In this document: positions 6,486 to 63,418 of the stretch, piece by piece
Layout of the letters: each line of letters starts with the position of its first letter
Numbering within the stretch: position 1 is the stretch's first letter
Assembly: GCA_036785375.1 (NCBI GenBank)
Contig: JAWMAR010000023.1
Location: 6,634,001 to 6,698,000, forward strand
Origin: Leucoraja ocellata
Lineage: Eukaryota
Direction of reading: 5' to 3'
DNA length: 64,000 bases
The notes under the pieces: generated by a model
What the model saw: only the letters and a program-made list of their open reading frames with translations
Database searches by the model: none
Told to the model about the DNA's origin: nothing
Made by a program: the position numbers and the translations under genes

Positions 6486-7745
6486 GAGATAAGATCAGTT
6501 TATTTTGGCATCAAGTTCTGCACAGACCCGTGTTCCTGTGCTATACTGTTCTATGTTCTATGTATAGAACAAACTGGTTTCCCCTGGATTGTGCAATTTC
6601 TTTTGTTCAGGCATAATTGATGTGAGGCTCTGGGCTCTGGTTCAAGATATAAAATGGATTTTATGTATCCTGGGCATCCAAGGAAAGGAAATTATCAGCT
6701 ACTGAATGAAAAAACATCAGGTTCCACCAATGAGGAGACTTCTGTGGTCGGTAAAATTCACGTCATACAAAAGTCTAGCAGCGTATCGTTGATTAACTAT
6801 AACTGACACCAGTTGCTGATTTCTCAAACATCAAAATTGTGGCAGGAACCACTGACTAGAAATGGAGATCGACTAACCACATAATTACTGTGGCTAAAAG
6901 AATAGTTCAAATGTCAAACATTCTGTGACAAGAAGCTCACTCCTCTGATTTCCCAAAAGCTTTTGATTTACAAGGCACAGATCAGGAGTGGAGAGAATAC
7001 TCTCCACGCAAGATTTAAACATTGAACAAATTAAAACAATTTAATTGAATGTCACTTTATTCATTATCTTATACATTCATTTCTTTAGCAAATGTGCTGC
7101 ATATAAGATGCACGGCAGCAATTCACCAGGGCTACTTTAAAAGCACCTCCGGAACCAATTACTACTACCACCAGGAAAACCAGACAGGCGTTGCATCGGT
7201 ACACCACCATCTACCGATTTCCCTCTCAGTCACACCTCATCCTATCCCGGTAAAAAACGGAGGATGCGTCATCCTTTGGTCAAATTCTCAGAATTCCTTA
7301 CCATGATTTCCTTACCCATCGCACTATGGAAGCATTTTCTGCACATAAACTGCAGCAGTTCAAGAAGACAACTCATCTTCTTACGTATTCTCAGAGCAAT
7401 TTGAGAATGACCATAAGTACTGCTTTTCCAAACTATTCCAACTTACCCAAAAAATATTCTTCAGTTCATAATATTAATCCAAATAAAAATCACTTGAGCA
7501 ACTTGCACTGTCCCCAACTGCACCACTTTGGTTTATTGAGCACACTCCAGCTTCCAAGCCCAATGCTTTATCACAAGTTCTGTGAAAAATTGTGTCCCAA
7601 TGATCCACATCTCCAGGATAGAACTTGGACAATATGTCTGGGAAAGCAGACAAATACAATTTGAGTTAGCTTGTACTCTTCGGTTTGGCTTGAATATGCA
7701 ATATACTGCCTGAAATTTCCAAACATCCACACTCAACAGTAATCT

Positions 7746-7799
7746 GGGGTGGAAGATTGCAACCTTCACCTGGTCCGCCCTGTTTCGACGAATGCAATC
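7746..7799 (+). ncRNA. minimal HDV-like (CPEB3-type) self-cleaving ribozyme
   Basis: P1 GGGGTGG/CCGCCCT with G1-U wobble; P2 GATTGCA/TGCAATC; P3 ACC/GGT; L3 TTCACCT; J4/2 CGAA with catalytic-C equivalent at 7789; P4 reduced to TTCGA. Confidence 0.8.
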
Positions 7800-7886
7800 A
7801 ACCTGGCGTGCACAATCAAATAAGATCAAATAGAACAAGTTGTCCTACAACTTTAGGCTGTGCACGCCATAAGCACGAAGAAGAAG
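7746..7886 (+). mobile_element. 141-bp non-autonomous retroposon: 5' HDV-like ribozyme, 3' stem-loop and (GAA)n tail, with 11-bp TSD
   Basis: Perfect direct repeat AACAGTAATCT at 7735-7745 and 7887-7897; (GAA)4 tail 7877-7888; hairpin TGGCGTGCACA 7804-7814 / TGTGCACGCCA 7859-7869. Confidence 0.85.
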
Positions 7887-10215
7887 AACAGTAATCTAAT
7901 TCTGGGAGGAACTCAGTTTCGGTTCAGTTTAGTTTATTATCACATGTACTGAGATACCGAATGGCCTACCCTTGCACCTATTTTCTATGTTTCTATGTTT
8001 CTAAAAGCTTTTTGTTGCGTGCTATCTATTCAGAGAAAGACAATGCACGATTACAATCGAGCCATTGCTGTGTTAAGATACATGATAAGGGAATAAAGTT
8101 TAATGCAAGGTAAAGCCAGCATAGTCCGATCAAGGATAGTCCGAGCGTCACCAATGAGGTAGATAGTAGTTCAGCACTGCTCTCTGGTTGTGTTTTTCGT
8201 GTCTAAGATATCAGATCGTTTTTACACAAAAGGAGACATGTCATTAAATGTTGAAATACACATTTATTTTTTTCCAGTAGTACTACTATTCTAGTAATAT
8301 TAATATTTCTGTTAAAATAACAAACATGGATTTATATTATACAATTTCTGTACCAATGTATTGCTCCAATTAGAAATTGTAGAGGATAGGCCTGATTTGA
8401 TTGGATCTCGTAAAAATATCCAGTCAACCTTCCAGTCTTTGTGGAATTAGCTTCATTTCAAGATGTCACGGTGTCTCTACAGTTGGATTAGGCTCCCCGG
8501 GGCTGGTGGAAGTAAGATTAGTCAGCTTCCCTAAACCCGGTCACTATCCAGTATAGAAATTGAATGTGTAGGATATTTCAAACAGAGCTGAAGTGGTTTA
8601 GCTGTGATTCTCCCCAACAAGCAAATACTCCCACGGTGAATTATAATGCAAGGCACAGATTTCAGCAATTTCACAGCGGGCAAAGACAAAAAACTTTTTT
8701 TTCAATAATAAACTTTATTCACAACTGTTAGAACAAACAAGCCTAAGTATGTTCCATAATGGATGCATCCAATAAAGTAGCAGATTGATAGGTTCCTGCT
8801 ATACACACCCTCTTTAATTCAGGTACACCCAGACAACTAAATAATATTTTCATTGTTTCAGGCTGAGTAGCCTTTTTGTCTCTGATGTATGTTCAGCTTG
8901 TGAGGAATGTCAGTTCCAAAAACTAGACTGTCCACATAATTTCAAGAAAATCTTAAACAAGCATGCTGGAGTGGAATTTAACATACCACATAATATCTGA
9001 TGATTCTAGCCTTCCAGAAAATCCCTCCCTGTCTTTTCAATGTCATTGTTTCAAATAGTCTGCAATTTAGACACCCTCTGTGACCTTTACCTATAACGAG
9101 CAATACTGCATCGCACCCAATTTTTTTTGTTCTTAAATTTACTTTAGTTAATTTACTTCTTCCTGTGTTACTTAACTGGTCAGCATTACTGGGAACTGAG
9201 GGTCATTGGGATTTTGTATACAACCAACTATTTTTAAAAGCAACTTTATCGTTAGTTCTTGAGTTATCTTTTGTTTCCTATTCTTTAGAATTGGCCTTTC
9301 TAGATGGTAGATTTCACTGAATAGTGAGACCCTGCCTGACAAGCCATGAAAAGTTGCAACAATGCACTTATAAATGAAACACCACACATCTAAGGTACAG
9401 CAGAATGAAGAGTGCAAATACTTAGGGTGGAGCATCAGGTGACAATTAATGAGCTACTTTGCTTTGGGAAACATTGAGCTTTTCTGTGGGAGCAGCACAT
9501 ACAAGTACAGTGTATCTCATAACACTCTTGGTGTGTCCTATAGATAGTTGTACCTCGGTACACGTGACAATAAAATAAACTATCAGATTAAGATTTTTAA
9601 AAGTTTGCAGGTGAGTTGGTCCCAAAGGATACACAGACATACTTTGTTCCTTCAGGTTCATTATTTATGGCATAGACCAATTACATTTCTCATCAATGGT
9701 AACTCTCAAAATGTCATAGAGGATTCAACAATTTCCATCGAACTGAATGTGAAGCATGTAGTTAGAACATTTTGCTGGAAAAGGCAATTGACCGGTACTT
9801 GTGTGATATAGATGTTACTGTCCATTTATCAGTCCATGTGTGAATGTCATCCAGATCTTACTGTATGCAAATACTTCCTTATTTTCTGATGTTGTAAATT
9901 AAATTAAACATTGCACAAGCATCCCTTATATTATAAGGAAAATCACTGATGAAGCAGTTGAAGATAATTGGTCCAGAACACTGTTCTGATGCCTTTCAGT
10001 TGAAATGATTGACCTTCAATCATCTAATAAGTTATTGATGTGCACAATCACCTTTACCATCTTTACCAATGTTAGGTATGAAACCAACCAATGATTTCCT
10101 TACTTAGAACATAGAACTGCGTAGCACAGGAACACAATGTTTCAGCCCACAATGTTTGCGCCAAACTTGATGTCAAGTTAAACTGATCTCATTTGCCTGG
10201 TACATGATCCATATC

Positions 10216-10790: not shown

Positions 10791-12559
10791 TATTCCTTGC
10801 ATTTCCATGTGCCTATCTAAAAGCCTCCACTATCAAATCTGACTGCACCACCACCCCTGGCAATGTGTCCCAGACTCCCATGTGTAACATACTTGCCCCA
10901 CACATCTCCATTAAACATTCCTCCTCTCACCTTATAGCTATGCCTCTAGTGTTGGATCTTTCCACCCTAGGAAATAGTCCCACTGACTATAATTTTACTC
11001 GCATTTTGTCAAATACTGCCTTGATGTGAAGAGCAATTACTTTCACCTAGTCATCTATCTGAGGTCTACAATGAAGTCTTGAGCCAAGTGGTCCTCAGAA
11101 AACCCAACTGAATAAAAGTGTTCAAGTTAGCATTGAGTAAACACTCTTCATGGCATTCATATACATGTTTCACTCTGTTAATGATAAACATGGACCAATG
11201 AACAATTAAATACATTATATTTGTCCTGATAGTTATGGACACATTTCTATAATATTAGGTGGAGGCTAGACTTGCAGTATACTGGACCAGCTTTCCTAGA
11301 GACACTCCTTGTTGAACCACAGCGCAAACTTATCAGGTTCTATGATCTTTGGTATACCCCGTGTTCTCAGATGTCTTTTGATTTCATGAAGAATTAATTG
11401 GATAAAGTCTGGCTTCTATGAAAGTGGTGACCTCTGGTGGATGCTGATATGGATTATCTACTCGATTCTTTAGGTTGAAATGAAGACTTCAGCCTATGGC
11501 ACTTTCTGTTGAGGATGGGCATGCTCCTTAACCATCTTCTTTCTGTTGGTTCTGTAATTATCAATCGCCATTCTCAAATGGATATAGCAGGACTTGGAAC
11601 TGGTTTGATCCTATCTTTGTGGGATTGTTTAACTGTGTCCATTGTATGTTATTTTCACTGTTTAACATAATAGTCCTACACTGCACCCATACCAGGTTGG
11701 CACTCACTGTTGGATATGCTGGTCCTACTCCTGGCAAGCACTTCCTTATTCCTCATTGAACCAGGGTTATTCTTTTGATGTAATGGTAAAGGTAGAATGA
11801 AGGTTATCCCTGCCATGCAGCTTCACGCATGATTAGCTACAAATCTGCTGCAGCTGATAGCCCAGAGCACCTCATGAATTCCAAATATTGGCTACTGATC
11901 ATTTTTTAACCTTAACTTGGCATAATAACACTACCACAATCAATGTAGGGCATCCTCAGTAAACAGGTGACACTTTGGGCTAGCTTACACTTATTTTTAC
12001 CTGATAGTTTCAAATGGAACTAGTTGCTAAACGCATAGAGGCTCTGTGATATGGACTGAAGATATGATGCTATGAGTAAAACCAGACAGACTGTTCTTTG
12101 ACTAATGTGAGAAACGGCTTTCCAATTTTAGGCAGAGATCTGAAAATACCCCACAAGGCTGACTTTACAGGGTTAACTCATCTGGGTGTGTCTTTGCTAG
12201 TGCCTGAAGCTGAATTGTCCTTCCGTTTTATTCTGATTGCATTTTGTTACCAGGCTGATATAACTGAGAAGCTTGCTGAACCGTTTCAGGGTACAATTAA
12301 GAGTCAATCATATTGCTGTGAGTCTTGAGTCACACGTATCTGCCAGACTGAATGATGAATGTCAGACTTCCTTCCCTAACAGGGGTTAGTATTCCAGAAA
12401 TGCCCAGATCATTTAAGAGCTGCCATGGAATATGGACTTTATTTTGAAAAGTTGGAATACTTAATAGAATGTGTACCTCTCTTTATAACTCACTTCTAAC
12501 CATTTCACAATCTCTTCTGGTTTACAACAATTACAAATAGTTGCCAGAAGTGAAATGAG

Positions 12560-13290
12560 AGTATGACCAATGTGGTGTGGGTCCCTGATAATGCCGGCTG
12601 TCTTTCTGAGGCAGCACCTCCAATAGATCCCTTCGATGGTGGGGAGGTCAGTATCCGTAATGGACTGGGCCGTGTGTACTAGCTTTTGCAATTTCCTTTG
12701 TTCCAATGTTCATCCTGCACCAGAAATCGTTGGTGAACCATGCAAAGGAAACCAGGCCTGAATTTTGTCAAGTTTTATCTGCATTCAGATATGAAAAGTC
12801 TCTTAACATTATTCATTAGAGTGGATGCTTAATTAGACTGGAGCCACATCCAATGTGAACCTCTCATCACTTCCTCTCTTGTTCCTCTCCCTCTCCCTCC
12901 TGTACACCTTATTTTTTCTTTCCTGTAAAGCACCTTGAATTGCTGTTTGCACGAATGGTGCTATACAAATAAACTTGCCTTGCCTTGCCTTACACCTACT
13001 CTTCCAACTACGTTTGCAGTGCCAAAGGCGGAATCATGGAGACGTAATGCATAAACTATGGAGGAAGCAACATAAATACCTTAGAAGAGGAAGGCTGAGG
13101 ATCCACAAACCTGTTTCATTGACGGATCGGTGGTGGAGGAAGTCACCAACTTCAGGTTCCTGGACGTGAACAATCTCTGAAGATCTGTCCTAGACCAGCA
13201 CATTGATGCAATCATAAAGCGAGCCTATCAACGCCTCTACTTTCTTAGAAGATTGTGGAGATTTGCTATGTCGACAAATGCTCTCTTCAA
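12560..13290. mobile_element. Rex1/Babar LINE fragments (12560-12705 minus; about 13025-13290 plus)
   Basis: Translation RKLQKLVHTAQSITDTDLPTIEGIYWRCCLRKTAGIIRDPHH and a VEEVTNFRFLG-like segment typical of Rex1 RT C-termini. Confidence 0.7.
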
Positions 13291-13875
13291 GTGAAGTGAC
13301 AAGCCTACTGAACTGATCGTATGTGAAGCAAGCTCCTTGGGTTGTTCCACAAAGATTTTCAAGATTGTAATGACATGCTTAGCAAACATTCATGCTAACC
13401 TATGCAGTCTACAACAATCATATATATTTTTTCATTATTTTAACCTTGGGTTTTATTTTCCTCCCTCATTTTCCCTCCATATATCTTTTCTCTTTTTTCT
13501 CTTCCTTCTCCCTCATTTCCTATTTTTCCTTCCTTATTCTTACCCCTCTCTTCATCAATCATTATCAGTATGACTAATAGACGTAATGTTTCCTGCAAAT
13601 TGATCTGGAAGAGGTTACTGCCTTGTCCAGAATGTGTGTTCTGTTTTTGATATGTTTGAACATGGCTCCCTCCTCCTGGGGCTTGTGTAACATTCAATGA
13701 TCAGTCATGCTACTGCTATTCACAAACACTCAATTATTATTCAGGCTCCAATATTATAATTCCATGAAAAACAGGTAATTCTGTGGGCAGGAAATGAGTG
13801 ATTAAAACATCAAGAATGACGCTGCGACTGTTAGACTTTAAAAATATTTTAAAAATCAATCCTACTCTCAACAGA

Positions 13876-14008
13876 ATGTGTAGGAAGAAACTGTAGATGC
13901 TGGTTTACACCGAAAATAGACACAAAATGCTGGAGTAACTGAGTAGGACAGGCGGCATCTCTGGATAGAAGGATTGGGTGACGTTTCGGGTTGAGACCCT
14001 TCTTCAGG
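13876..14008 (-). mobile_element. Penelope-derived terminal repeat with intact minimal hammerhead core
   Basis: Minus strand 14007-13980 reads CTGAAGA-AGGGTCTCAACCC-GAAA-CG-TC. Confidence 0.75.
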
Positions 14009-14609
14009 CCCTGTCTATTCTCAACAGTGTTATTTTATCTGATCCCACCCAAAATGTCTCGGAACAAAGCCAGATTTTCAATTACACCAAATCAGGAAAT
14101 GGGGATTAACCTAGAGAGCGGCATGATATGAGGACTACGTCTGAGAGTGGGGGATGAAAAGAAAATAGGAGTACAAGTGTTGGAGAAGGAGTAATATAAA
14201 TGTAGCATTTTGTCTGTGCCTTTAGCTTTTATGTGACTTAAAATCACAACCTATTGGCTAAGTGAGGTCATATATCCCATTGTTCAGAACCAACAGGAGA
14301 GAAAGGCTTCTAAACAGTCAGACAGACAGCATTTTCATGTTGGGATGGTTCTTCATCCCATTGAGAGATAGCACTTTCAGGGTAGAAGGGCACCTGAACC
14401 ATAATGAAAATCAGCATCTTCAGTGGAGGATGGGATTGAACCAGAGGGCTTTCTGGGAGGTGGTGTCCCAGAAACCCGGTCAGAGCATCTGCAGGGATCA
14501 TTTGGCCCTGAATCCAGGAAAAGTCAGCTTCTTTCCCGCGAGAGAGAAAGGGAAAAAATTAGTTCTTGCAATCTGTTAAATCAAAAATAATTTTGAGGCG
14601 ATGGTTGGC

Positions 14610-14828
14610 ATACTGCGTACATTATTGTCCATTATGTTCCATTATTTATTATGTAAAAGAATATGTGTGTTATGATTGTGTTTATAATTTGTTTGGTTGT
14701 TTTGTTGTTTGTCTTTTGCACAAAAGTCCGCGAGCATTGCCACTTTCATTTCACTGCACATCTCGTATGTGTATGTGACAAATAAACTTGACTTGACTTG
14801 ACTTGACTTGACTTGACTTGACTTGACA
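14610..14828 (+). mobile_element. Rex1-type LINE 3' end with (ACTTG)n tail
   Basis: tttcactgcacatctcgtatgtgtatgtgacaaataa followed by about 9 ACTTG units (14785-14828). Confidence 0.7.
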
Positions 14829-14904
14829 TACATGTCCTTCAGCATTTGGCACCTCTGTTTTGTTTACATTGTCATTTGCTTTAACTTCAGCCAATTAAAC
14901 TATG

Positions 14905-15770
14905 AGACAGACACAAAAAGCTGGAGTAACTCAGCGGGTCAGGCAGCATCTCTGGAGAAAAGGAATAGGTTACGTTTTTGTTCAAGACCCTTTTTCAGAC
15001 TGTGGGTCAGGGGGAATGGGAATGAGAGATACGGACAGTGCTTAGGAGATATAAATGAAAGATATGTAAAAAGCAGCGATAATCAAGGAATTGTGGAGTA
15101 CACGATTGGCTACTGTTGGATGTGGGAGAGGTGACAACGAGTAAACAGAGGGACGCAACAGAATGACAGTAAAAATAACGGTCTGAAGAAGGGTCTCGTC
15201 CTGAAACATCACCCATTCCTTCTCTCCAGAGATGCTGCCTGTCCCACTGAGTTACTCAAGCATTTTGTGTCAATCTTCTGTGTAAACCAGCTTCAGCAGT
15301 TCCTTCCTAAATAGTAAAACTTATATGATGACTAGGATGGGGGAGGGATGATGAGGCAAGGGTTTCTTGGTTAGATAAATCAATATTTATACTACTGGGT
15401 TGTAAGCTGCCCAAGTGAAATATGATATGCTATTCCTCTAATTTACATTTGGCCTCACTCTGACAATGGAGGAGGCCCAGGACAGAAAGGTCAGTGTGGA
15501 AATGGGAAGGGGAGTTAAAGTGTTTGACAACTGGGAGATCATGTAGGCCGAGGAGGACTGGGCGAAGGTGTACAGCGATGCGATCACCGAGTCTGCGCTT
15601 GGTCTCGCCGATATATAGGAGCTGACACCTGGAGCAGCGGATACAGTAGATGAGGTTGGAGGAGGTGCAGGTGAACCTCTGCCTCACCTGAAAGAACTGT
15701 TGTTGGTCCCTGGGCAGTCGAGGGAGGAGGGATAGGAACAGGTATTGCATCTCCTGCGGTTGCGAGAACG
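14905..15770 (-). mobile_element. Penelope-like element remnant: GIY-YIG endonuclease region plus 3' terminal repeat, with an opposed terminal-repeat copy at 15180-15310
   Basis: ORF 15430-15870 contains FTCTSSNLIYCIRCSRCQLLYIGETKRRLGDR..H...PVVKHFN (GIY-YIG with Cys/His motif); the downstream sequence ends in the same ~130-bp repeat dispersed through the window. Confidence 0.9.
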
Positions 15771-16339
15771 GGAGCTCTGATGTGACAATAAAGAATAAAT
15801 GATACCGAGCCCTCCCAAAAATAATAGACCTAGAGAATGAAAATGTACTCTGAGTTCCAATTCTAATCACAGAAGGAAGCTGGAATCCAAACCCGATTCA
15901 GTGAGTAAGTTATTAGTCACTGTAAGGCTCCTCGTGACGGAGATACTATAATACTGAAGGAAGTATGACATGCGATCTGACCCATGCATTTAATTGATTG
16001 ATTCAGCATACTGGCTAACTATTGCAACATATCAGTTGGGTGACTGAACTGTGTATTGGCAACAATCTATGGCTATTATGTAAGTTGACCGTTGAGAGGT
16101 CAGAGGAAGCCAAGCCAATTACCGACACATGACACACTGGATCAATGTGAAATGCTGAATAGTTAACATTAGCCAGGTGACACTGCCCCTCCAAGTCAGC
16201 AGGCAATGTGGCTGAAGTTTTATTCCGTAGGTTTGAAGCTCATAATATAGGCCAGAGCATTATGGAGGGAGATTTTATCTTTGAGATGAGATGTTAACCT
16301 GTTGGAACTCTCACATGAATGTAAAAGGTCCTGTAGTGC

Positions 16340-34922: not shown

Positions 34923-35489
34923 GTAAGTATCTCACTCGAGTAGGGTAAATGTTTGAACATTTCTGTTTTATACATAAATTACTTTTGATAAAAGTAATTG
35001 TGATGGTTTATTTTTAAATTATTTATTTGATCATTTGGGGGGGAGGGGGGGGGGTGGCTGCTATTGACAATGCCAGCATTTATTATACATTTTCAAATGG
35101 CCCTGCACTAAGGAACCAGTTGGGAGTCACTCTGATTGTTGTGAGAAAAACCCACATAACCTGTGGGGGGTGGGGGGCTTGGGAAGACTCCTTATAACGA
35201 TCATTCGTGGGCAATAAGCACCAGCCTTGACAATTATTTTTGTTTCTCCGTGTTCGTTTGGTAAACTTTTTTTCATACTTGTTGTAATACTGTGAAACTA
35301 TTTCACATGAACTGAGAAAATCTCAGGCTCTGAGACCAACTCTTGGTTGGTCTTCAAAATAATTCTTGAGAGGGATGCTGATTAACCAGTGGCACTGGAT
35401 CTCCGAACTCTGCAAAATGCAGAAGGAGAGAGAGAAAGCTGTGAGATGTTTAACATTTTAAAAGAAAATCCTTTCCTCCCATGAAATAG

Positions 35490-36646
35490 GACAAGACGAG
35501 GAGCCATTTGGACTGAATAGATACTGCTGCTTTGGAAGATCATCCTTCCACAAGATACGACCACCACCTCTGAAAATGCAAAACTCTGAGGAATCGTTTG
35601 TACAGCTGGAAAAGGATCAGGTTTTGCCTCATTTTAAGAAACTCTCAGTAAACAGCACAATGTTGTCACCACCTCAAACACCAGTGAGGGGAGCAACTGC
35701 ACTAATTAATTTTGGATGTTCCAGTGACCGAAGCTCTAAGCCGCTCCCCCCACTGCCTTTCCCTTGTGATGAGTTATTCGATGATGTGGACAGTGAGGTT
35801 GAGTCCATTACGAACTCTGAAACTGACTTGCTCTTGCATGATAACCGACCATTGGGCTTCAGATATGGCGCTCCCAGCAGAAGGAGTTTCCGTGGATGTG
35901 GGCAGACCAACTATGCCTACTCTGAGAGTATCAGTCGCACTAGATTACCAGAGAGTTGCCATGTTATAAAAGATACTTGCCTGGAAAATAAAGAGGTCAC
36001 TGTACAACCTGTTAAGCCCCACCGTAAATTACGGCGTTCGCATTCGGGCCCAGCTGGATCCTACAACAAGCCTACCATACTGAAAAATGCAAGTTGCCTC
36101 TCAAACTCATTGACAAATACCAGTGAGATAAAGCCTGAGATTCCCCCTCGAGTACCCATACCCCCACGGCCAGTGAAACATGACTACCGGAGATGGTCTG
36201 CAGAGGTTATGTCAGCCATGCACTGTGATGAGGACAAACCACCAAAGGTTCCTCCAAGGGAACCTATGTCCAGAAGCAATTCACGCACCCCAAGTCCCAA
36301 AAGTCTCCCGGCTTACCTCAATGGGGTGATGCCACCAACACGAAGCTTTGCACCTGATCCCAAATATGTCAGCAACAAAGTCCTCCAACGGCAAGCAAGT
36401 GATGGGGCAACGACACGGGTACCATGTATTTTGCCAATCATTGAAGATGGGAAGAAGGTGAGCTCGACACACTACTACTTGCTTCCTGAGAGACCTCTAT
36501 ACCTTGACAAATTTGAGAAATATTTAGTAGAGACCCAAGCCTCAGAGGAATCAAATGATTGCACAACAGAGAGCTTCAAGACATTTGCTTTGAGCAAACC
36601 AGTAACAATTAAACAGAAACTTGTTTCCAATGTGGACGCTCCTTAG
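35490..36646 (+). CDS. ERRFI1: ERRFI1 last coding exon (ERBB receptor feedback inhibitor 1, 454 aa total)
   Basis: DQV..FKKLSVN, RRSFRGCGQ.NYAY, LRRSHSGPAGS, PPRVPIPPRP, DYRRWSAEV, PKSLPAYLNGVMPPTRSFAPDPKYVS and PCILPIIEDGKKVSSTHYYLLPERP (EGFR-binding segments); acceptor atag at 35489 is in frame. Confidence 0.98.
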
Positions 36647-50722: not shown

Positions 50723-51654
50723 TTAATTTGCATCATTCTGCCTCTTCGTGTAATCCTGAATGCAGGATTGGAAATAAACCATGGTGTTATTCTGTGGCAT
50801 AAACAAAATGATGTAACATTTTGGAACAAAATAGCCCAGAGCAATACTAAAGGCACTAGTGACAGTTAGGAAAGTCTGTATGTATGAGGTGTACCTTTCC
50901 TGATTGGGGGTGACCATTGATGTCATATACAGAATGTAATACACAAAACAGATCATCATACTGAAGGCAATGAACTTAGCCTCATTGTAATTTTTTGGTA
51001 GGTCTCTTCCCATATAAGCAAAGATGAAACATGCTACTGTTAGAAAAACAGTGTAAAGAAAACTGAGAGAGAAGCCAATGGTGTTACCAATGTTGCAGTC
51101 CAGGACAATTGCTTTCGTAATGATATGCCCAAGAGTGCTGGGTGGGCCTGTAATCATCCACACAGTGCAAATGATGATTTGGATGAAGGTGCTTAAAAAT
51201 ATGAATATGTACTGTCCATTATATTTAACCCAATATTCGTGGGCCTTGGGCAACTTGGCAGCCAGTTTAAAGATACAGACAATTTGAAATGACCTAACCA
51301 AGATACAAGACAGGCAGATGGTGAAGCTGACTGTGAAAATCATCTGTCTTATTTGGCAGGATGCTTTGCTTGGTTTGTCAATGTAGAAAAACGCACAGGA
51401 AAAGCTACAGATTATTGATGCAAGCATGAGAAAACACATTCTGCCACCAGCAGACCTGACAACTGGAGTGTTGTAATTAAGTATAAAGATGATTACTATG
51501 ATAATGGTCAGCAAAAGTCCACCATTCGTCAACATCAATAGAAATATAGAGAAAGGTGCATGCCATTCCAGATAGTTTAGCTCCCGTTCCATGCAGTGAT
51601 GGCTCCTTGGAGGTGACCACTGATGCCAGAGACAATCCACACAACTGTAGGGAT
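50723..51654 (-). CDS. TAS1R1-like: T1R taste receptor A exon 6 (end of Cys-rich domain plus 7TM)
   Basis: TPVVRSAGG.MCFLM, CLSCILVRSFQIVCIFK, LPKNYNEAKFI.FSM, PKCYII, FQSCIQDYTKR; acceptor ttgcag; 932 nt. Confidence 0.96.
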
Positions 51655-52968
51655 CTGCAACAAATTTAATTATGATTAATTCACATGGAGGCCAAGGACA
51701 CTTTAAAGAAACTGTGCTGTGCACATTGGATATGGCAAAGCACCGGATTTGACCCAAAGGTTATTTGGCCTGAAGAAGGGTTTCCGAGCCATAAGTCATC
51801 TGTACATTCCCTCGACAGATGCTGCCTAACAAGCTGAGTTCCTTCAGCACTTTCTTTGACTTTAACAATTTATTGAAAAACTCCCACTCCTTTCAGCAAT
51901 ATTGTCAACCACTTCTTTGAATTTTATACTGTTGAAATCTGTTATAATTCTTAACTTCAGCCTTGCTCATGTTGATTTTCCAGGGGAGACTTTATCTCAT
52001 AGACATGAATAACGTATAGAGCAAATTTTCTTATACACTCTTGGTAAAAAAAAGTCCTCTGGGAGTCCTAGAATACAAAGAACAGGATGAAAGAAAAGTG
52101 ATTGGGGGAAGATTACATGTTGAGCTACCCTTGGACTGTAAACAGGTAAGTGTTCTAGTATTCATTGAAGATGGTAACTACATTTGGTTTACCTCATAGC
52201 TGCCCACTATAGGATTTGCTACATTAGTCCTGATGGACAGACTTTAAACAGGTAGATACAAGAAACTGCAGATGCTGGTTTACAAAAGAAAAAAGACACA
52301 TACTGGAATAACACTGTGGGTTAGGAAATATCGCTGGAGAACATGGATAATGACGTTTTGGGTCAGGACCTTTCCTCAGAGCATCTTAAAGAGGTGCTAG
52401 ACATGTGCTACAGCACATTCTTGGCTAATATAGTAAGTTGCAGACTTCTGTTCACAGTGAGTTTGTGTTTTCATGTAACCTTTTAGGGGATTTAATAGGT
52501 CAATCACCTACTGAAAAACAGAGGCACTTTGTAGACTTCCAATTTAAAAAAATGTTATTTTTAACTCTTTTCTCATCAGTTTCAGAGTGTGAAGCAACCA
52601 ATTGCCCACAAAGATTCTCTCATTGCATTACTGAACATAATTCTAGGTCCAAAGTTATAGTAATGAATTGTTTTTGTTCCATTTTAATAACCCATAAATT
52701 CCTCTCCTCCCCCCTCCCTCCACATGTGGAGTTAACTAGCGGCTGGTTTTCTGCAGAAAGAAATGGGATCTTGGCTGAATAAAAACCAAAGGTCTCTTTG
52801 GTTGACTCAACCAATGAGGCAAGAGAAGAAATGCAAGCTATTTTGAACAGATTTTCCTATTAGAGGTAAGCAGTTGCAGATGGTGTGATATTTTACAATC
52901 CAATGAGGTCAAGGAAAAAAGTAAATCAAAAACTAGGTGAGGAATAGCGGATAAAGAGGCTTACTGAC

Positions 52969-53089
52969 CACTTTGATTGAGGAATGTTCCAGAGGGACAA
53001 TCTTCACAGTTGTAGCAGCAAGGAAAAATCCCTCTTGGGACTTTCTTCTGTCCAGGTTCACACATCGTTGAACAATTAGAAAATGGAAT
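52969..53089 (-). CDS. TAS1R1-like: T1R receptor A exon 5 (Cys-rich domain; missed by the ORF track)
   Basis: ccag|IPFSNCSTMCEPGQKKVPRGIFPCCYNCEDCPSGTFLNQS G|gtcagt, 121 nt. Confidence 0.95.
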
Positions 53090-53299
53090 CTGGTGGATAA
53101 AATACACAAGACCTCTCTAAGCTTCATATAGAGACCCAGCTATCATTGTAGAAATTAATTTTGCTGTGGAGTGGGGTTGGAAGGGGGAAGACATGGTAGG
53201 TATCTTCCCCATCCAAAGGCAAAAACATTGGTTTTTTTCTCTGGAGCTTCGTAACAGTTCCACAAGAACAAAATTATTAAGTTTTTACAGCGTTCTCAC

Positions 53300-53512
53300 C
53301 AAGTTATCTTCCGAATTCCACTGGATTAAGGATGGATTGATGCTGATCTTTCTTGTAGCTGGCATGTATGAACCAATAGTCTTAAAGTCGACTCCGACTC
53401 TCGTCCAATCCCATGAAACAATGTCATAGCCAACTGGTGGGTCTCCGTTCTCATCAAAATAGAGAGTGTAATCTTGAAGGTTAAATTTCACCGTCTTTAA
53501 TCTGCTGAGTAA
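53300..53512 (-). CDS. TAS1R1-like: T1R receptor A exon 4
   Basis: acag|LLSRLKTVKF...YFDENGDPPVGYDIVSWDW...IQWNSEDNL|gtgaga, 213 nt. Confidence 0.95.
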
Positions 53513-54385
53513 CTGTCACACAAATAATTGAATGCAAATACATGATATCAACATTGAGATTGGGCAGTTCAACCAGTAGGTTTGACATTGTTTATAATTC
53601 ATTCAGTCATCACTGAAATTCTAAATATCACCGGTGTTTGGCTCAAATTCTTTAATTCTACTCGACTGATTTTCCTTACTACTATTTGAGTTTGATTATC
53701 TATTTAATTATGTTTTTGTTGAATTAATTATTGAAAGGTGAGCATTTGGATGTTAAATTTATTAATTGTGATTACGTTTCAGGTTAGATTAGGGGCAAAT
53801 TCTGAGATTTAATGATTTACTTGTCAAGGGCAAGTCTTAAGATCAATTGCTAGGTAATGGCTCACAGTTAAATCTTAAAATTCAAGTTTAAAATATGTCT
53901 TGGGGTTCATTATGCATTCAGTTTTAGGATGTAGACACAGGTACTGCAGATGCTAGTTTACAAAAAAAAAACACGGCAGTCTGAAGAAGGGTCTTGACCC
54001 AAAACGTCACCCATTCCTTCTCTCCAGAGATGCTGCCTGTCCCGCTGAGTTACTCCAGCATTTAGTGTCTACCTTCAATTTAAACCAGCATCTGCAGTTC
54101 TTTCCTACACAAAAGGGAAACTGGAGAGTTGGAAATTTTGGGTAAGGGATATGAGCAGTGGATGAAGTTCAGGAAGATGATGAGGTGAAATTGAGGGATA
54201 TGGGTAGTAAACAAAGTTGGGGGGGATGGGGATAAGATAAAACTGAGGAATAAATGAGGGTGAATGGGATGGATGTGTTAATAAACAGGTTTGTTGTGCA
54301 CGAAGGGCTTCTCTGATTTCCATTAATTTTGACGCTCTCATATATCTGCCTAAATGTGAATCACACTGGATGGGCATACACCTAC

Positions 54386-55144
54386 CTGCCATGGGAGGAA
54401 GCTTTGTGTTCTATCACACTGTGTCGCATTACATTGGAGTAGATCGTGCAATGCATGGGCCACAGCATACACAGCTGAGTATACATTGTGTGAGATTCTC
54501 TTCTCCAGGCTGGGTGATGAAAAGTTTAAATGCTTAGCCTTCAGCCAATCACATTCTTGATCACAGGTGCCTCTGTTAATGGTACACTCTCCCAATCTTA
54601 GGCCTGGCACGATCCCTGAGTAAATGTGGTTCAGAGGTTTGTCTAGGAATTCCTTAAAGTGTGTCAATTCCCCTTCCTTAACCGCTATGCCAATAACAGT
54701 CCCAATACTCTCAATTCTTGGTATTTTTGTTATCTCCTCCGACAATGAAATGGCCTCACTTACGATCCACACTTTGGAAGTAAGATTTTGAGCCACAACA
54801 AAACTGAAAAATACTTGTGCTATTAACTTATTGGAAAAGAGAATTGTAACATTGACAGTGCTGCTGATGTTGTTAATGACTTGGTTGATAATCTCGGGGG
54901 AAGTAGAGATGATACCCTGATACGCAATGCAAGTCCCCAGCGCCGAGGCCATTTCCACCACTTTGGTTAGTCCATTGCGTCCATATTCATTGTCACTGCC
55001 AACAACAGCAATCCAGTTCCAATGGAATTCCTGGATCAGTAAAGCCATGGCTTCTACTTGATTCTTGTCACTCGGAATAGTCCGGAAAAATGACGGGAAA
55101 CGCATTTTGTCACTCAGAATCTCACCAGATGCCAGGTAGCTAAT
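54386..55144 (-). CDS. TAS1R1-like: T1R receptor A exon 3 (Venus flytrap domain)
   Basis: ctgcag|ISYLASGEILSDKMRFPSFFRTIPSD..Q...FHWNWI...YSAVYAVAHALH.LL.C...PWQ|gtaggt, 759 nt. Confidence 0.96.
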
Positions 55145-55687
55145 CTGCAGAAGCGGAACAAATACCTACGTTAATGCAGAATTTCACAAACAATGAGGTA
55201 TCTTTATGTGCATTTACTGTCAACTCATAGTAAGACAATCTGTGTAAGATTGCATAAAAAGCAATAAAGGAATAAAAATGAACAAATGATTTGCCAATAA
55301 TTGAAACAAACACCAGGAAGAATTCCCTTACTCTTTATCACATATTATGTGCCATAATATCTTTAATATTCGCCTGTGAGGGCAGAAGTGGCCTTACCTG
55401 AAAGGTAGTTATCTGCCAGTGCAACTACCCATATTGCTGCATTGCTCTCCCGGTAGGGATTCTTATGTTCAAGTCCATTTTGGTTCAGAGATGTGCCACC
55501 ACTAAGAAATATACTCATCCAGAGTAAATCACCTTTCCTTCAGGTCGTTCCATCCAAAGTATAATATGGGGTTTACTGATAAAAGTGTTAGGATCCCTAG
55601 CTGCCCTCTTGTTCAGATGATGAACGTACTGCCCGCAATAACATCTCACATGTTTTAATACACCGTTAGCCTAGTCTAATCAGAACA

Positions 55688-55853
55688 AGCTAGAGTAACT
55701 CAGCGGGACAGGTAGCATCTCTGGAGAGGTGAGTGGGTGACGTTTCGGGTCGAGACCCTTCTTTCTCTCCAGAGATGTTGCCTGTCCTACTGAGTTACTC
55801 CAGTTTTTTTGTGTCTATCTTCAGTGTAAACCAGCATCCGCAGTTCCTTCCTA
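55688..55853. mobile_element. fold-back pair of Penelope-derived terminal repeats in T1R-A intron 2
   Basis: gagtaactcagcgggacaggtagcatctctggaga ... tctccagagatgttgcctgtcctactgagttactc forms a near-perfect inverted repeat. Confidence 0.8.
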
Positions 55854-56234
55854 AACAAATCAGGACAATATTACCATATCAAAGGAGATAACAGGAGTGA
55901 CCAAAAATGTGAACTTTAACAAAGCTGTGGAAGGATAAGAGTCATGTGGAGGTCGTAGAGGGCAGAGGTAAAGGAAAGGGGTCTTTTAGAAATTAGAATC
56001 TGATTAACAGAACATTCGAGCATGGTGAAGTTTGGATGTAATGGGACAGAAGGTATTTTCAAGATTATGGAGGATGAGATATTAAAGTATTTAAACCCAA
56101 GGACAACAATTTAACTTTTGATAAAGGAACCATAAACATACGTAGATTATCATGAACAGTAGGAATGAATAAATTGGGCTTGGTGCAGGATAGCTAACAA
56201 AAAATATAGTTATAGTTGTTCAAAACACTGCAGA

Positions 56235-57036
56235 TGCCACATTCTGAGTATTGTGTTCGGTTTTGTTAACACTACTAAAGGGACAATGTCATTATGCTGG
56301 AAAGACTGCAGAGATGATTCACAATGACGTTGCCAGGACTTGAGGGCCTGAGCCATCGGAGGAGATTGGGGAAGCTAGGATTTTATTCCTTTGAGGGTGT
56401 GAGGCTAAGGGTGATCTTATAGAGGTGTATACAATTGTGAGGGGAATTGATAGGGCGAATGCACAGAGACTTTCACTCTGGAGAAACAGAGAACACAGGT
56501 TTAAGGTGATAGGTGCCTGAGAGGCAACTTTTTCAGAGGGACGTGGATATAGGGAATAAGCTGCCAGAGGAGGTACAATAACAACATTTAAAAGATACAT
56601 AGACAGGTACATGGATAGGAAAGGTTTGGGGGGATATGGGCCAAATGCACGCAAATGGGATAAGCTGTAATGGGGATAAGCTGTACTTGGTTGGCATGGA
56701 TAAATTGGGCGAAAGGTCTGTTTCTGCATTGTATGACTGACTCAATGAGATTACCTAAAATTTACAAAAGTAAAAGGATAGGAAGGTTACCATCAGAAGA
56801 GTGTGTCTTTACTCAAAGAGTGGTAGCTGTATGGAATGAGCTTCCAGAGGAACTGGTGAAGGCAGGTTCGTCTTTATCATTTAAAAATAAATTGGATAGG
56901 TATATGGAGGGGAAAGGAATGGAGGGTTATGGTCTGAGTGCAGGTAGATGGAACTAGGTGAGACTAAGTGTTCGGCACGGACTAGAAGGGCCGAGATGGC
57001 CTGTTTCCGTGTTGTAATTATTATATGGTTATATGG
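56235..57036 (+). mobile_element. two adjacent CR1 3' fragments in T1R-A intron 2
   Basis: FTQRVVAVWNELPEELVKAG...FKNKLDRYM; (ttatatgg) tail. Confidence 0.85.
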
Positions 57037-57801
57037 TCATTAAGATTGTAGTAGGAGGCAGGGCCATTAGCTGTTATAAAAATAGAGATTAGGCTTGGTT
57101 GCCTTATGAATTTAAACGCATGATGTAAAGCTTAAACAGGAACCAAAGAACTTTACTGGCTCAGCCAAAGGTAGAAGACATAAAAAGAGGTGAGGTATCG
57201 AGAAGGTATAAAACATGTAATCTTGTAGACAGCAGCTTCCATAGTCCAAATGTTGAGATGGAAGAATTTACAAATGTATTGAAGACTGGATGTCAGAAGA
57301 GTCGAGGAACCTGTGGTATTGTGAATACAGTCATGAAACTGGATATAATACAGTGGAATGTTTTGCATAAATAACATTAGTACTTTTAAGCCTTGTCGAC
57401 AGATGTCACTGCCAAGGGCAGCCTATTTCATTTCTGGTATGTGATGAATTTGCTGCTCATGACCTGGGCAGAGGAAAATCAACCATTTCTAGATCCAATA
57501 ACTGTCCAGTGACATTGGGTGGAAATCCATGATCATGGCCTTCAATATAGTTTGCTAAAGTACCCCGACAAATTGTACAAACATTCAGTACCTAATTTCT
57601 TTAACATAATTTATGGATGTTTACTGAGGCCTTAAACATCTTCAGAAGACCTGATCCTTGTGAAAGCCTTCAGCAGTGATTTTAAATGAGACCATGACAA
57701 CAAAGCCAATTTGAGCATTACGGTAAATTAAGAGAACTGAAACCTGGGCAAACTGCATCTATTGCAGCTCAGACATTAACAAGAATCATGGTGAAACTTA
57801 C

Positions 57802-58105
57802 CTGAGGAATGAGGAAGAAACCTGAAACTCTAGCAATGGTAATTGCTATTTCGCTTGAAGCTGGCCCAATAATAGCGATCACTCTGGGCTGATAGGATGT
57901 ATAATTGTTTAATATCTCCACTTCTGTTCCTTGCTTGCCCGACAGGAATCTGAACATGGTCTGAATATCCACAACTTCAGAGCAACTGTCAGCAATATCA
58001 TAGCCCAGAATAACGCCTGGCAACAGCTCAGTTGAGTTATTAATTTCTTCAAGGGCAAATCTCATTGCTTGGAAATAGATGAACATGTCTTTCTTGAAGA
58101 TTGAC
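57802..58105 (-). CDS. TAS1R1-like: T1R receptor A exon 2
   Basis: cttag|..FQAMRFALEEINNSTELLPGVILGY.I.DSCS...NYTSYQPRVIAIIGPASS...FLIPQ|gtaagt, 304 nt. Confidence 0.96.
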
Positions 58106-58461
58106 CTAAGAAGATATCATTTATTTAAATTAAACTTTTACGGGCAAGAAAATTACTGTATAGCTCAAGAATAACATGGTAGGTAATTTTCACAGGTGTC
58201 AGACATTTGGACAAACATAGGAAAGTGAAACTTGCGAGACAGAAAAACGACCTATCCATTTCACTTACAGGTCATTGAAAATAAAAACGATGTTCCTGAT
58301 TAACATAGGTATATTATCTCGTCTGATGAGTTGAACAGACACAGACATGAGTTGGGAAAATCACTGTGTTGAGGAGCTTTGGGAACCAAAGGTCCGAAGT
58401 CATAAACATACACCACTCGTCGTCAGATGTTTCAGAGTATCAAGTAGACATTTTCTTAAAC

Positions 58462-58870
58462 AAAACACAAAATGGTGGAGAAACTCAGCGGATCAGGCAG
58501 CATCTGTGGAAGGAATGCATAGACAGTTTCAAGTTGGGACTATTCTTCAGAATGATAGGTGTAGAGGGGAGATAGCTGAAAAAGAGGTGGACAAAACCTC
58601 GCCCCAAATCTTCACTCATTCCTTCTCTCCAGAGATGCTGCCTGTCCCGCTGGGTTACTCCAGCTTTTTGTGTCTATCTTCGAGCCACAGGTGAATATAG
58701 GTGAGGAGGGCTTTTGATTGGCAAATGGGTGGCGTAAATGACAAAGGTTAGAGGTGAAAAGGAGACAAAGGGTGTCAGACAAGGAAAGGAGTGAAATTTA
58801 AAGTAGGAAAAGAGTTGTGGGTGGAAAGGGATGGGAGACTCAGTTGGTGAGTGTACGTTTCCCTGAGTTG
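58462..58870. mobile_element. Penelope-derived repeats (opposed copies plus adjacent 3' region)
   Basis: aactcagcggatcaggcagcatc... and cattccttctctccagagatgctgcctgtcccgctg... Confidence 0.7.
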
Positions 58871-60225
58871 CCCAAACAATGAATATATATCTGACCACGT
58901 TTTAACCTGAGATCCCACTTCCAGCAGCTGGATACAATACTTATTGAGATTTATGGCATGGATTCAAGAAATATGAAAAAAACATTCAGATGGAGAGCTG
59001 CTCCTATTCCTAATCCAATGGAACACGTCCACATTGTGAGGCTGACACCTGCCAAACCCAATGTGCAACTCTGAAAAATCCAGGCCAGCAACATTAAGGT
59101 CAAAACATTACTGTCTCCATCTGTGCACTTCAGCTTGATGTGAAAGTGTGATAGCAAGTTCAGGTAGGGTGAAGGAGTGTCCTCAGATGTCAAACTTAGG
59201 AGTGAGATAAAAACACAAGTCGTAGAAAATATTATCATGACTAGAATCAGCAACAATTAGAACAATTAATGTGGAATTCTATGGTTTGAAACATGCAACT
59301 TGTTGGTTGATTCCCATTAAATCTACACTTTCATTAGACCATGACAATGAAATGCCCCAGCTGTAATTCAGTTTTGGATATTTGTTACACCACATATAAA
59401 CCATCTGAATCATTTGACTAGAATGCAACTTATTCCTCGATAATATGTATAAAAAACAACCGTACTTCTCAGTCAGTAACTTTCTTGATGACTTTGAATA
59501 TTCTATTTTTATAATTTATTAATTCATGGCAATTGGACATGACTGACAAGGTCAGCATTTATTACCCATTCTAAATTGTTCTTCAGAAGGTCATGATGAA
59601 TACTTCAAATACAAATAAGGCAATACTATGTGTTGTGCCAGAAGTTAGTGGAGCAATATAGAAACAAAGGCAAGTTCGACTTGGATAGAACTGAAAAGTC
59701 AGAGGTTAGGCTTAAACTGTACGCAAGTTTGATTCAACCACGACCAGGGTAATGGTTGCAGTATTAATCTCTATATTTTAAAGATGATTTTGAGATCATG
59801 GAGAAAGTGCAGAGAATTTTTACAAAGATGATACTAGAAATACGAGGGTGAGAATATCACGAAAGGACAATGTGACTGGATGGCTATCCTCTTGGGCAAA
59901 GTTTGAGCAATGACCCAACTAAAGTTTTAAGATGATGAAAGGTTTTAATTATGTTAATACCCAGAGAATATTTAATTTTGGGGGGAAATCTAACCAGAGG
60001 CCATCATCATAAAACAATCCCTAAGACATTCAATAGGAAATTCTGAATTTCTTGACCAAAGGCGGTGAGAATGTGGAATTTGGTACCATATGGGAGTGGT
60101 TCAAGCAGATTGTATTGATTCATTTAAAGAGAGAAGGACAAGCATTTATGGGACGGAATTATGCTGATCTAAGGAAAGACAGGAGGAGTGGAACAAAGGT
60201 GACAGCAATAATTGGTTATTAATAC

Positions 60226-60360
60226 ATGTGTAGGAAAGAACTGCAGATGCTGGTTTAAATCAAAGGTAGATCGCAAAATGCTGGAGTAACTCAGCGGGGC
60301 AGGCAGCAACTCTGGAGAGAAGGAATGGGTGACGTTTCGGGTCGAGACCCTTCTTCAGAC
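60226..60360 (-). mobile_element. Penelope-derived terminal repeat with consensus minimal hammerhead core
   Basis: Minus strand 60358-60331: CTGAAGA-AGGGTCTCGACCC-GAAA-CG-TC. Confidence 0.8.
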
Positions 60361-60390
60361 ATACTGCCTGTTTCTGAGCTATGTATCCTT

Positions 60391-60498
60391 TGTAATCCTA
60401 CATATATCATGATTGATACAAACAAAACCTGTAATCATACATATAACATGACTGATACAAACAAAACCTGTAATCATACATATAACATGACTGATACA
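60391..60498. repeat. 39-bp tandem repeat (about 2.8 copies)
   Basis: tgatacaaacaaaacctgtaatcatacatataacatgac is exact at 60414-60452 and 60453-60491, with partial flanking copies. Confidence 0.9.
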
Positions 60499-60641
60499 TT
60501 CAGGCCGAACACAAGAACCTCTATACATAAAGACACCAGCAACATACACATAGAGCATGTACATGTATTCATGGTGTGATAGTTATAATATCTCATCAAG
60601 GATGAGTTTTACGCACATAATTTTATTCAGCTGTTACTTAC

Positions 60642-60826
60642 TTCTCACAGCTGGGTACAACAGGCTCTGATCGGTCAACATCTTCAAGTGAGGTAGAGTG
60701 AATAGGAAACAAGCCCCCAATCACATACTCTCCTGGTGAGGTTAATATTCCCGAGCATCCTTCTGAGACAACTCTAATTGGTTCCACTATTGTGGAGTAA
60801 ATATACAGGAGCAAAAGGAAGTACAT
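60642..60826 (-). CDS. TAS1R1-like: T1R receptor A exon 1 (signal peptide; full CDS 2514 nt, 837 aa)
   Basis: MYFLLLLYIYS...PGEYVIGGLFPIH...PSCE AA|gtaagt, 185 nt, phase 2. Confidence 0.94.
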
Positions 60827-62193
60827 TTTGCTACAGAAATGAGATGGAGCTCTCTGTGCTTGGAGGAAGCTGATTTTGCCATTTCAATTTCTTTTAAAGA
60901 ATGCAGTGTGAGGGATGGCTGAAGAGCCAAATGATTGTTTGCATAATATTTCCATAATATTCACTGTTCACTTAAGTTGGCTTTAATGCACATACACCCC
61001 CACATCATCACAAAGATCCCATTCCTCATCTTCAGCTTGTCCCATGATTTAAGTCAAGACTGTTTAATTGTCATAGGTCCTGACAATGGAACAATGACAT
61101 TTTACTTGCAGCAGCTTAATAGACCCATAAATGCAATACACATAAAATATAATATATTTTTAAAATTCAGTAAATTAATAACTAATACCAGTGCAAAACC
61201 CCCCACAGTTTTTAATACAAAGATAGCCCATAGAAGTTCATAGTTGCTGAGGTTAATTTTGTGTAATGTTCAAAATCCCGAAGGTTGTTGGGAGGAAGCT
61301 ATTCTTGAACCTGATGATCATAGTTTTTAGGCTCATGTACGTTTTCCAGATGGTGGGAGCGGAATGATGCAACCACTCGTTATGCTCTCTATCTTGTATC
61401 TGTAAAAGTCCAAAATAGACATTGACATACCGAATCTTGTCAACCTTCTAAGGAAGCATAGGTCTTGATGATCTTCGGAGATATGCATGCCCAGGAACTT
61501 AAAACATGTTGACTCACTCTAATGCCATCTATCAATGAAGACAGGTTTGTGGATTGTTGGCTTTCCCCTCCTAAAATCAACAATCATGTTGGTTTTGCTG
61601 ATGTTGGGGGCAAGATTATTGCTCAGGCACCATTCAATCGAATTTTCAGTCTCCCCCCAAAATTCGAAATGGTTCCATGCTACTCAGGGTTGTTGCAATA
61701 ATGCTGAGAGTTAATATGCAAATTAAAATGTCTCCCCCCCCCCCCCCACCCCCCACCCCCACCACTGTTACCACCATCCTCCGATGTGAAGGCACAATGG
61801 TCTCCATAAAGTCAGTGGTAGGATTAATGGGTTTGCTGGGTAGATGGCTCTAAGGGATTTGATGTTGAAGTTGGAGTTTGGATCGGTGGGTTTAACCTTT
61901 GCCTAAGGGACTTGTTTATCTATTCTTGTTTCTACGTTTGTATCAAACGTTTGTGCCCTTTCCCTTTCTACGAATCAGGTTCATAAAAAAACATTGACCT
62001 TGGATTACTTTTAACCGGAAATATAATTCATTGGTTAGTTGAACATCATTCAGCATGTGTAATATATGCAAATATCCTCAAATTAGGTAATCTAATTATT
62101 TGATTACAAAGAAAACAGATAAAAATGTCCACAAATAAAGTCGTGAATTTTCTGTTTGCACAGTAGGGAAAGACCAATTACTTGTCAGTTAAA
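60827..62193. promoter_or_regulatory. divergent promoter region between two T1R genes, with octamer motifs
   Basis: ATGCAAAC (minus, 60937-60944), ATGCAAAT 61716-61723 and 62066-62073, ETS-like ACCGGAAAT 62014-62022. Confidence 0.6.
61045..61660 (-). mobile_element. degraded Rex1/Babar LINE 3' fragment inside the T1R intergenic region
   Basis: tttaattgtcat...gaacaatgacattttacttgcagcag tail and ggaagctattcttgaacctg / cttctaaggaag.atagg segments shared with 17100-18050. Confidence 0.7.
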
Positions 62194-62390
62194 ATGACTT
62201 GTTACATTTCGCTGTCGGGTTTCCATTTACTGCTGGCCGTGGCTTCTCTAACCGAGGCATCAGGAGTTCATGGAATCAATGCAGAGTACATGGTGTCTGG
62301 AGACTACATCCTTGGAGGACTGTTCCCTTTTCATGAGAATAGCATTGGTCTAGCTCAACGGCTGAAGCCTGAAAGGGTGACTTGTAACAG
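62194..62390 (+). CDS. TAS1R3-like: T1R taste receptor B exon 1
   Basis: aaaATG; hydrophobic signal peptide; GDYILGGLFPFH...R.KP..VTC; AG|gtaaga, 197 nt, phase 2. Confidence 0.92.
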
Positions 62391-63418
62391 GTAAGAAACT
62401 ATCATCTTTAAATTCTCTCCTCACCTGAAGATGTGGACCTTCCACTTGAGTGGTAGGATCCACCTGCCCAGAAGGTGCTTTCCAGGGCTCAGTCCTCCCA
62501 TGACTGTACTTCCCTGATTTTACCGACACCCAAAGTGGCTAACCTGAACATTTTCTTTCAAGCACTCTAGTCTTCTTTTAAAATCAAGATTGAATCCACG
62601 ACTGCCCCTGTCCAGACCCTAACTACTCACTGCATAAAAAGGGCTTATTTCGTATTACATTTTGCCAATTACCTTCATTCTCTGATCACTATGGTAGTGT
62701 AATGATTACGTTTCTGGACGAGCAGCCAGAGATTTGACTCTCACTGTGGCATTTAGAGAATTTAAATTGATTAAATGTCTGGAAATTCATAAAATCTAGA
62801 CTTGGTAATGGTAACCATTGGATGGAACTATTGAAACTATTCAATAGTTCATGAAACTATGAGTGTGCAAGAAATCTAATAGGTTTATTAATGCTTGTGA
62901 TTATCTAGTCTGACCTACACATGACTCTAGATCTATCAATGAGGTGACCTCAACCACCTCTTTAACTCAGGGGCAGTTAGAGGTGCAGAACATATGATGG
63001 CATTGGCAGTGATGTCCACACCCCACAAATAAATTAATTAAATTGACTCTTACCCTTTCCGCCATGATCTGCACTTAAAATTAAAAAAAAATTAACTCTT
63101 AAATGTCCAGAAACCAGCAATGAACAAGTCCAACAGTTTTATACAATAATCAACATTAATTGTCCCATCAGATTCCTTATCTGAGTCCACTGAAGCAGAA
63201 GCAGTGAGGGACTTCCCAGCAGTTGGCATGTGAGCCACTCTTTCCCCTAGGCCAGGCAGCAGTTCAGACGTGTCTGATGGCTCAACATCCTCTAATCCAA
63301 CTTCAACTGGATATATTTTTTCCATCGTATATTCTTCTGTTTGTGTTTCCTCTCCCTCTAATGCAATCATTAGATTTTCTGAGCTGATACCTCAACTTGT
63401 TGTTTATCTCTGTTTCAG

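Follow-up and report, generated by a model that had tools for sequence, protein, structure and literature searches.

Ribozyme-headed, internally deleted LINEs are already known, and two groups of them resemble the element that we describe here: the NARTc, RIME and SIDER elements of trypanosomatids are short, combine both ends of an Ingi-group LINE with about 77 shared 5' bases, and bear an HDV-like ribozyme at +1 (PMC4035085, PMC3383444), while the R2 SIDEs of Drosophila consist of a 5' ribozyme fused to the LINE 3' end through an internal deletion, and are moved in trans (PMC3414825). PMC5786205 names six LINE clades that have 5' ribozymes, the Vingi clade not being among them; Vingi 5' ends are printed in the same source and are not called ribozymes there. 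Minimal HDV-like forms that have no P4 have been reported almost only from phages, and four theta ribozymes have been seen to cut themselves in vitro (PMC10879173). The CPEB3 ribozyme has been reported from mammals, with none found elsewhere and no outgroups (PMC8233481).

The element is located in a window of 64,000 nucleotides (the whole stretch of DNA that was analysed), and all of its features are on the + strand: a 141-base insertion at 7746-7886 is flanked by 11-bp direct duplications of AACAGTAATCT, at 7735-7745 on the 5' side and at 7887-7897 on the 3' side, and the last base of the 5' duplication, a T, immediately precedes the predicted cut (position -1). The insertion is genuine: Logan runs X3 and X6 (organisms C and E) have an unoccupied orthologous site with the 11-mer as a single copy, whereas run X12 has a filled one; an earlier note on this DNA had described an insertion between perfect 11-bp repeats, and each of its coordinates holds. 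All three runs carry the family, in copies that have unrelated flanks across the 7745/7746 boundary, and at least half of the element's words are present in 18 of the 23 listed Logan runs (nine organism codes), four of which may come from the source of this DNA. Run X3 also has about 18 extra bases at window 7716-7734, corresponding either to a small deletion upstream of the insertion here or to an insertion in X3. Elsewhere in the window, a Mig-6/ERRFI1-like exon is located at 35462-36646 (+), with the element on the same strand and 28 kb upstream of it, and class C taste-receptor-like GPCR exons are located at 50723-63746 (-).

The insertion is composed of three parts: a head (nt 1-77, 7746-7822) that is common to the 5' UTR of a partner LINE at about 86-90% identity, a 22-nt junction (7823-7844), where 7837-43 pairs with 7847-53, and a 42-nt tail (nt 100-141, 7845-7886) that is also common to the partner LINE and comprises the last codons, the stop, a short 3' UTR and (GAA)n. 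An 11-bp stem, formed by 7804-14 with 7859-69 and thus extending over 7804-7869, couples the LINE-5'-derived to the LINE-3'-derived sequence (folding z -4.6, 0/200 shuffles); the ends of the partner LINE itself form a weaker duplex.

The first 54 bases of the head (7746-7799) are predicted, from a descriptor, from covariation and from theta-like core letters, to form a P4-less HDV-like ribozyme. In nested double-pseudoknot order, the stretch contains P1 (7746-52 with 7775-81; 7 bp, including G1-U), P2 (7755-61 with 7793-99), P3 (7762-64 with 7772-74; 3 bp) and a 7-nt L3 (7765-71), together with a single P1.1 pair, C7767-G7782 (C22-G37), a linker TTCGA (7784-88) in place of P4, and J4/2 CGAA (7789-92), which begins with the predicted catalytic cytosine at 7789 (C44, the C75 equivalent). 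The earlier note had given all of these parts, and a C at 7770, in this order, and each position that it names stands. When both strands of the window are scanned with an HDV descriptor, which was composed with knowledge of the element, this one site is returned; 150 shuffled windows and 100,000 shuffled elements yield no site. Judged by this descriptor, the HDV-like fold is not due to chance. The comparison with the Rfam CPEB3/HDV models that the earlier note had called for is negative: the 7746-7886 copy has no HDV/CPEB3 match at E<=10, and two family heads that have G25 (L065 and L268) have none at E<=1. The nested MFE of the 54-mer, obtained with a method that does not include pseudoknots, is unremarkable (z 0.08).

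If the element were an ordinary polymerase III SINE with a coincidental fold, its SINE-like size, its duplication and its simple-repeat tail would be accounted for; what decides against this reading is that the best A box has 3 mismatches and the best B box 2-3 (in line with the claim that clear Pol III boxes are absent), that the tRNA search is negative and no Rfam small RNA is found, that the head derives from the 5' end of the LINE itself, and that the shuffled elements never fit the descriptor. The SINE reading is largely refuted, and we give it next to no credence.

The predicted fold has been compared in 18 heads from 7 groups, i.e. in related sequences that were picked by patterns containing L3 and part of P1: pairing is present in 91% of the cells for P1, P3 and P1.1, and the covariation is 0.47, against 0.14 for shuffled heads (0/500 shuffles reach the observed value) and at most 0.12 for slid ones; the count of pairs changed on both sides in this P1/P3/P1.1 test is not above that of the shuffles (298/500). 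P2 has been compared with the catalytic C positioned by the best P2 pairing, in groups of 2-12 heads, except for 83 heads of the 7746-7886 family: it is Watson-Crick in 49/49 majority cells, and six of its seven pairs have changes on both sides. The C22-G37 pair of P1.1 is present in 17 of the 18 sequences, as in CPEB3, with U-U at the second P1.1 position, and C-N-A-A of J4/2, with the catalytic C at the same place before P2', is the majority string in 7/7 groups. In this genome, the covariation of P1, P2 and P3 extends over six Vingi-like families. The compensatory changes that the earlier note had asked about are seen between families; within the family itself they are absent, all changes there being one-sided.

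In genome G000 (3.44 Gb), a 35-base pattern from the head has 2,905 exact matches and a 30-base pattern from the interior has 3,688, with 0 for both reversed controls; 3,688 is thus the minimum copy number of the family, and the cross-matching of the two patterns (8/30 and 7/30) gives an estimate of about 11,000-16,000, i.e. about 10^4. The 5' boundary has been examined in the first 30 loci of the internal-pattern matches, chosen regardless of their 5' end (29 read, 4 flagged as duplicates): the start is at nt 1 in 22 copies, at nt 2 in two, at nt 3 in one and at nt 6 in one, while the head is absent in three; 24 of the 29 have a duplication, whose end is no more than 1 nt from G1 in 22 cases (control, 1/60). 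A second, head-selected set of 72 distinct full-length copies has duplications of 8-15 bp in 58, ending within 1 nt of G1 in 48. With 24 of 29 copies starting within 1 nt of G1, the coincidence of G1 with the insertion boundary, which the earlier note had described, is borne out across copies; the insertions are dispersed and their duplications vary. The base at -1 is T in 39 of the 72 copies (background 0.28, p 2e-6); HDV cleaves best after T at -1 (PMC1874588), and target choice alone can explain the excess. In run X18, which is only guessed to be RNA, a contig covers nt 1-77 plus the upstream flank; contigs carry no start information.

An identical boundary would be obtained from a transcription start at +1, if the 5' end were set by an RNA polymerase II promoter located inside the element, within its first 77 bases; the fold would then be a ribozyme that is vestigial or slow, or would serve mostly as a protective 5' cap or a protein-binding site. 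Such a promoter is favoured by the extension of the head common to the LINE for 23 bases past the fold, and Pr77 of L1Tc is both promoter and ribozyme (PMC3383444); the two can indeed coexist in one head. The leading G residues speak against it, being exactly four in 54 of the 72 copies and five in 8, with no dominant extra-G cap signature, as does the pairing, which has been kept through many double changes and around an invariant catalytic core in six families. We consider this promoter reading unlikely, while leaving it appreciable weight.

A G occupies position 25 in 20 of the 26 copies compared and in 90-93% of the depth in three Logan runs; the C at 7770 is thus a minority letter, as the earlier note had suspected, and a likely weakening one. 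The U20-G25 reverse wobble can form in the family majority, not in the 7746-7886 copy. G25A strongly impairs an HDV ribozyme (PMC13635239). Because the 7746-7886 copy has C25 where about 90% of copies have G25, and because its 5' flank can pair with P1, it is probably a poor cutter, with activity expected of the G25 majority form. In J4/2, the subfamily change from CGAA to CTAA is common (15-38% of the depth in Logan runs), and 4 of 26 copies no longer have C44; this loss and the lack of compensatory changes within the family are what neutral decay predicts, and together with the one P1.1 pair, the missing P4, the three headless copies and the lack of an Rfam match they weigh against a ribozyme. 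A copy of the CTAA subfamily is located inside a tandem repeat unit of about 2 kb that is repeated many times (L080-L090, G000:C1:19.26-19.43 Mb).

The proposal of a bipartite non-autonomous element is supported by the partner LINE, with which nt 1-77 and nt 100-141 are both shared. One of 30 loci found with the tail pattern (L170) is a coding 3' end that carries the element's tail; a search from L170 has given 918 candidates, of which 40 were scored, and most of 29 oriented loci share nt 100-141, while a pattern specific to the LINE 5' UTR has 31 matches. The duplicated pair L295/L296 represents the full-length, decayed LINE, with the same G1 start, the same tail and an 8-bp duplication; L296 has 3,294 bases, and L295, which carries a later insertion of about 1 kb, has 4,222. 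The decayed ORF comprises an APE-like N-terminus, an RT domain and a C-terminal CxC..H..C motif; RNase H was not found in the four pieces scanned, which make up less than the whole ORF. The short element is equivalent to LINE nt 1-77, 22 unassigned bases and the last 42 LINE bases, without the ORF.

The earlier note had expected an autonomous element with both termini, and this part of its proposal is answered by L295/L296; it had also expected an RTE-type LINE as the mobilising agent, and this part is not supported, the LINE with both ends being Vingi-like. RTE elements likewise have bipartite derivatives (PMC5786205); as single-ORF elements without RNase H, they would to that extent suit. 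Over long stretches, however, the partner has 35-45% identity with an Anolis APE-RT protein of 939 aa, and its identity with a further family of this genome, family A, is 31-44%; it has the CxC..H..C motif, and family A (APE + RT; 3,126-3,143 bp in 3 copies) matches Repbase Vingi-2_Gav (3,128 bp) in length and head. On these grounds, which are those of sequence comparison, the partner is a Vingi-like LINE of roughly 3 kb, with a single ORF encoding APE and RT, and not an RTE; mobilisation by an RTE-type LINE appears very improbable.

Other candidate partners have been rejected. An RNase H search for an I/Nimb partner has given 150 matches, and 0 of the 30 loci examined held the element's ends or tail; a pattern that sought a LINE containing the mid stem has given 75 matches, almost every one of them the short element with indels; family A has a different 3' end. 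An AAG-tailed LINE (L151-L180) accounts for most tail-pattern loci, yet it is a different LINE, with a 3' hairpin and variable 5' truncation, and its tail presumably resembles Nimb/I tails. A PDB search has returned distant RTs only. As a separate observation, 18 of the 30 partner 5'-end loci L265-L294 (about 13 after merging duplicates) have the extreme 5' part inverted, head-to-head with a downstream part of the element; the downstream part is mostly far away and the junction is usually within 13 nt of G1, which looks like twin priming favouring the RNA 5' end.

The reading that we prefer, and hold to be probable, is that of a ribozyme-headed, internally deleted copy of a Vingi-like LINE that is freed by cleavage before G1 and copied by the LINE protein. 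Its observed basis is made up of the two ends held in common with the partner LINE, of that LINE itself, of the number of copies, of the duplications ending at G1 and of the covarying fold; from there, RNA polymerase II read-through of the host would supply the RNA, Mg-dependent cleavage just 5' of G1 by C44 would likely free a unit-length RNA, and the Vingi protein would recognise the tail and carry out target-primed reverse transcription in trans.

A pattern requiring other P3 letters has found further heads in the genome, and 56 of 59 scored heads match RF00622 above the cut-off (35), with up to 64.7 bits in sister heads. Families A, C, D and E have heads with a full P4 that pass RF00622, followed in at least some copies by Vingi-like ORF sequence; homologues of family A, of 920-960 aa, occur in Anolis, sea urchin, amphioxus and insects. 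Heads of family D are near the Rfam CPEB3 consensus, including the P4 stem (57 and 56 bits for L320:1501-1571 and L327:1501-1579; also L331 and L335), and L327/L349 looks like an internally deleted element. The same head is found at the 5' ends of Repbase Vingi-2_Gav, Vingi-4_Crp and Vingi-1_BF, with a matching stretch at 395-451 of Vingi-2_SPur (Kojima 2018 supplement, PMC5786205); compared by eye with the Rfam CPEB3 consensus, Vingi-2_Gav has 2 differences from G2 to the start of P4, and 0 in J4/2 and P2'. Since sister elements start with near-copies of the CPEB3 ribozyme, the mammalian CPEB3 ribozyme is likely to have derived from such a Vingi-like element. The tRNA-headed alligator SINE2-1_AMi carries, at 61-127, a Vingi head with a CPEB3-type P4 and altered L3 and P1 (PMC5786205 supplement), the alteration being as expected if an active ribozyme would remove the tRNA head.

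Family F (L181, L186, L190, L192, L194, L195, L200, L204, L205 and L210) is a second short family without P4, of about 150-185 nt, with another P2 and another tail. Most of its copies begin with four G, one short of a 7-bp P1, and 8 of 9 heads are without G1 in the standard register; that the family has nonetheless been amplified and spread is a point for the promoter reading.

The element's family departs from its sisters at P3 ACC/GGT and at TTTCGA before the catalytic C, and agrees there with a subclass of theta ribozymes: the TTTCGA linker is present in 317 of 7,704 published theta rows, and L3 begins with TTC in 23 of the 24 rows displayed (PMC10879173). CTAA and CGAA both occur as J4/2 in theta ribozymes. 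This match to theta cores counts against the promoter reading. In IMG/VR, we have found 23 loci with a theta-like core, of which 18 fold by the rule applied and 7 are near a tRNA; one viral contig (L381:301-329) has the element's core and exactly its linker, but an unrelated P1 and an unrelated P2, both of them fully paired. Its P1.1 consists of one pair, so that a two-pair descriptor would miss it, and there is no tRNA in its vicinity. A GTDB scan for the core has given one match (L382), which does not fold. Convergence on a working minimal core is the likelier origin of the theta-like core; its capture from a phage or bacterium we regard as improbable.

Our literature searches have returned no Vingi ribozyme, no P4-less vertebrate ribozyme and no link between Vingi and CPEB3; parts of these findings may be anticipated in Kojima 2011, Repbase, Dfam, patents or Ruminski 2011, the last of which may include Vingi-type heads under other names. 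We rate as evenly balanced the broader proposal that Vingi is an unrecognised ribozyme-headed clade, that one of its 5' ends was domesticated as the CPEB3 ribozyme, and that the head described here shrank to an active P4-less, theta-like form, which in number of copies would exceed any other minimal HDV-like ribozyme known from a vertebrate. If it is true, Vingi would be one more LINE clade that generates its 5' ends through self-cleavage, the CPEB3 ribozyme would gain a source and natural outgroups, and a phage-type minimal ribozyme would occupy about 10^4 places in the genome of a vertebrate, with sense intronic copies able to cut pre-mRNA; Vingi UTRs are in use in RNA gene-insertion platforms (PMC13708176), and a self-cleaving 5' UTR would matter there.

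Compared with the known systems, the element shares with Vingi LINEs and their bipartite derivatives a parent of about 3.1 kb that has one APE-RT ORF and no RNase H (PMC5786205, PMC13708176). It differs from NARTc, RIME and SIDER in its vertebrate host, its Vingi-like parent without RNase H, its lack of P4, its (GAA)n tail, its roughly 10^4 copies and its ribozyme, which is predicted; R2 SIDEs occur in small numbers and in 28S rDNA only (PMC3414825), whereas the element's family is dispersed and abundant. L3, the single P1.1 pair and J4/2 of the family majority are like those of the CPEB3 ribozyme, but the element's head has no P4, other P2 and P3 letters and no RF00622 match, and the mammalian ribozyme is single-copy and intronic. 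With theta ribozymes, the head has in common a length of about 54 nt, a short linker in place of P4, a P1 of 6-7 bp, a J1/2 of 1-3 nt and a P2 of 7 bp, while those in the published table have two P1.1 pairs (PMC10879173) and the element has one; theta ribozymes belong to phages, often behind a tRNA, whereas the element's ribozyme would head an animal retroposon with no tRNA upstream.
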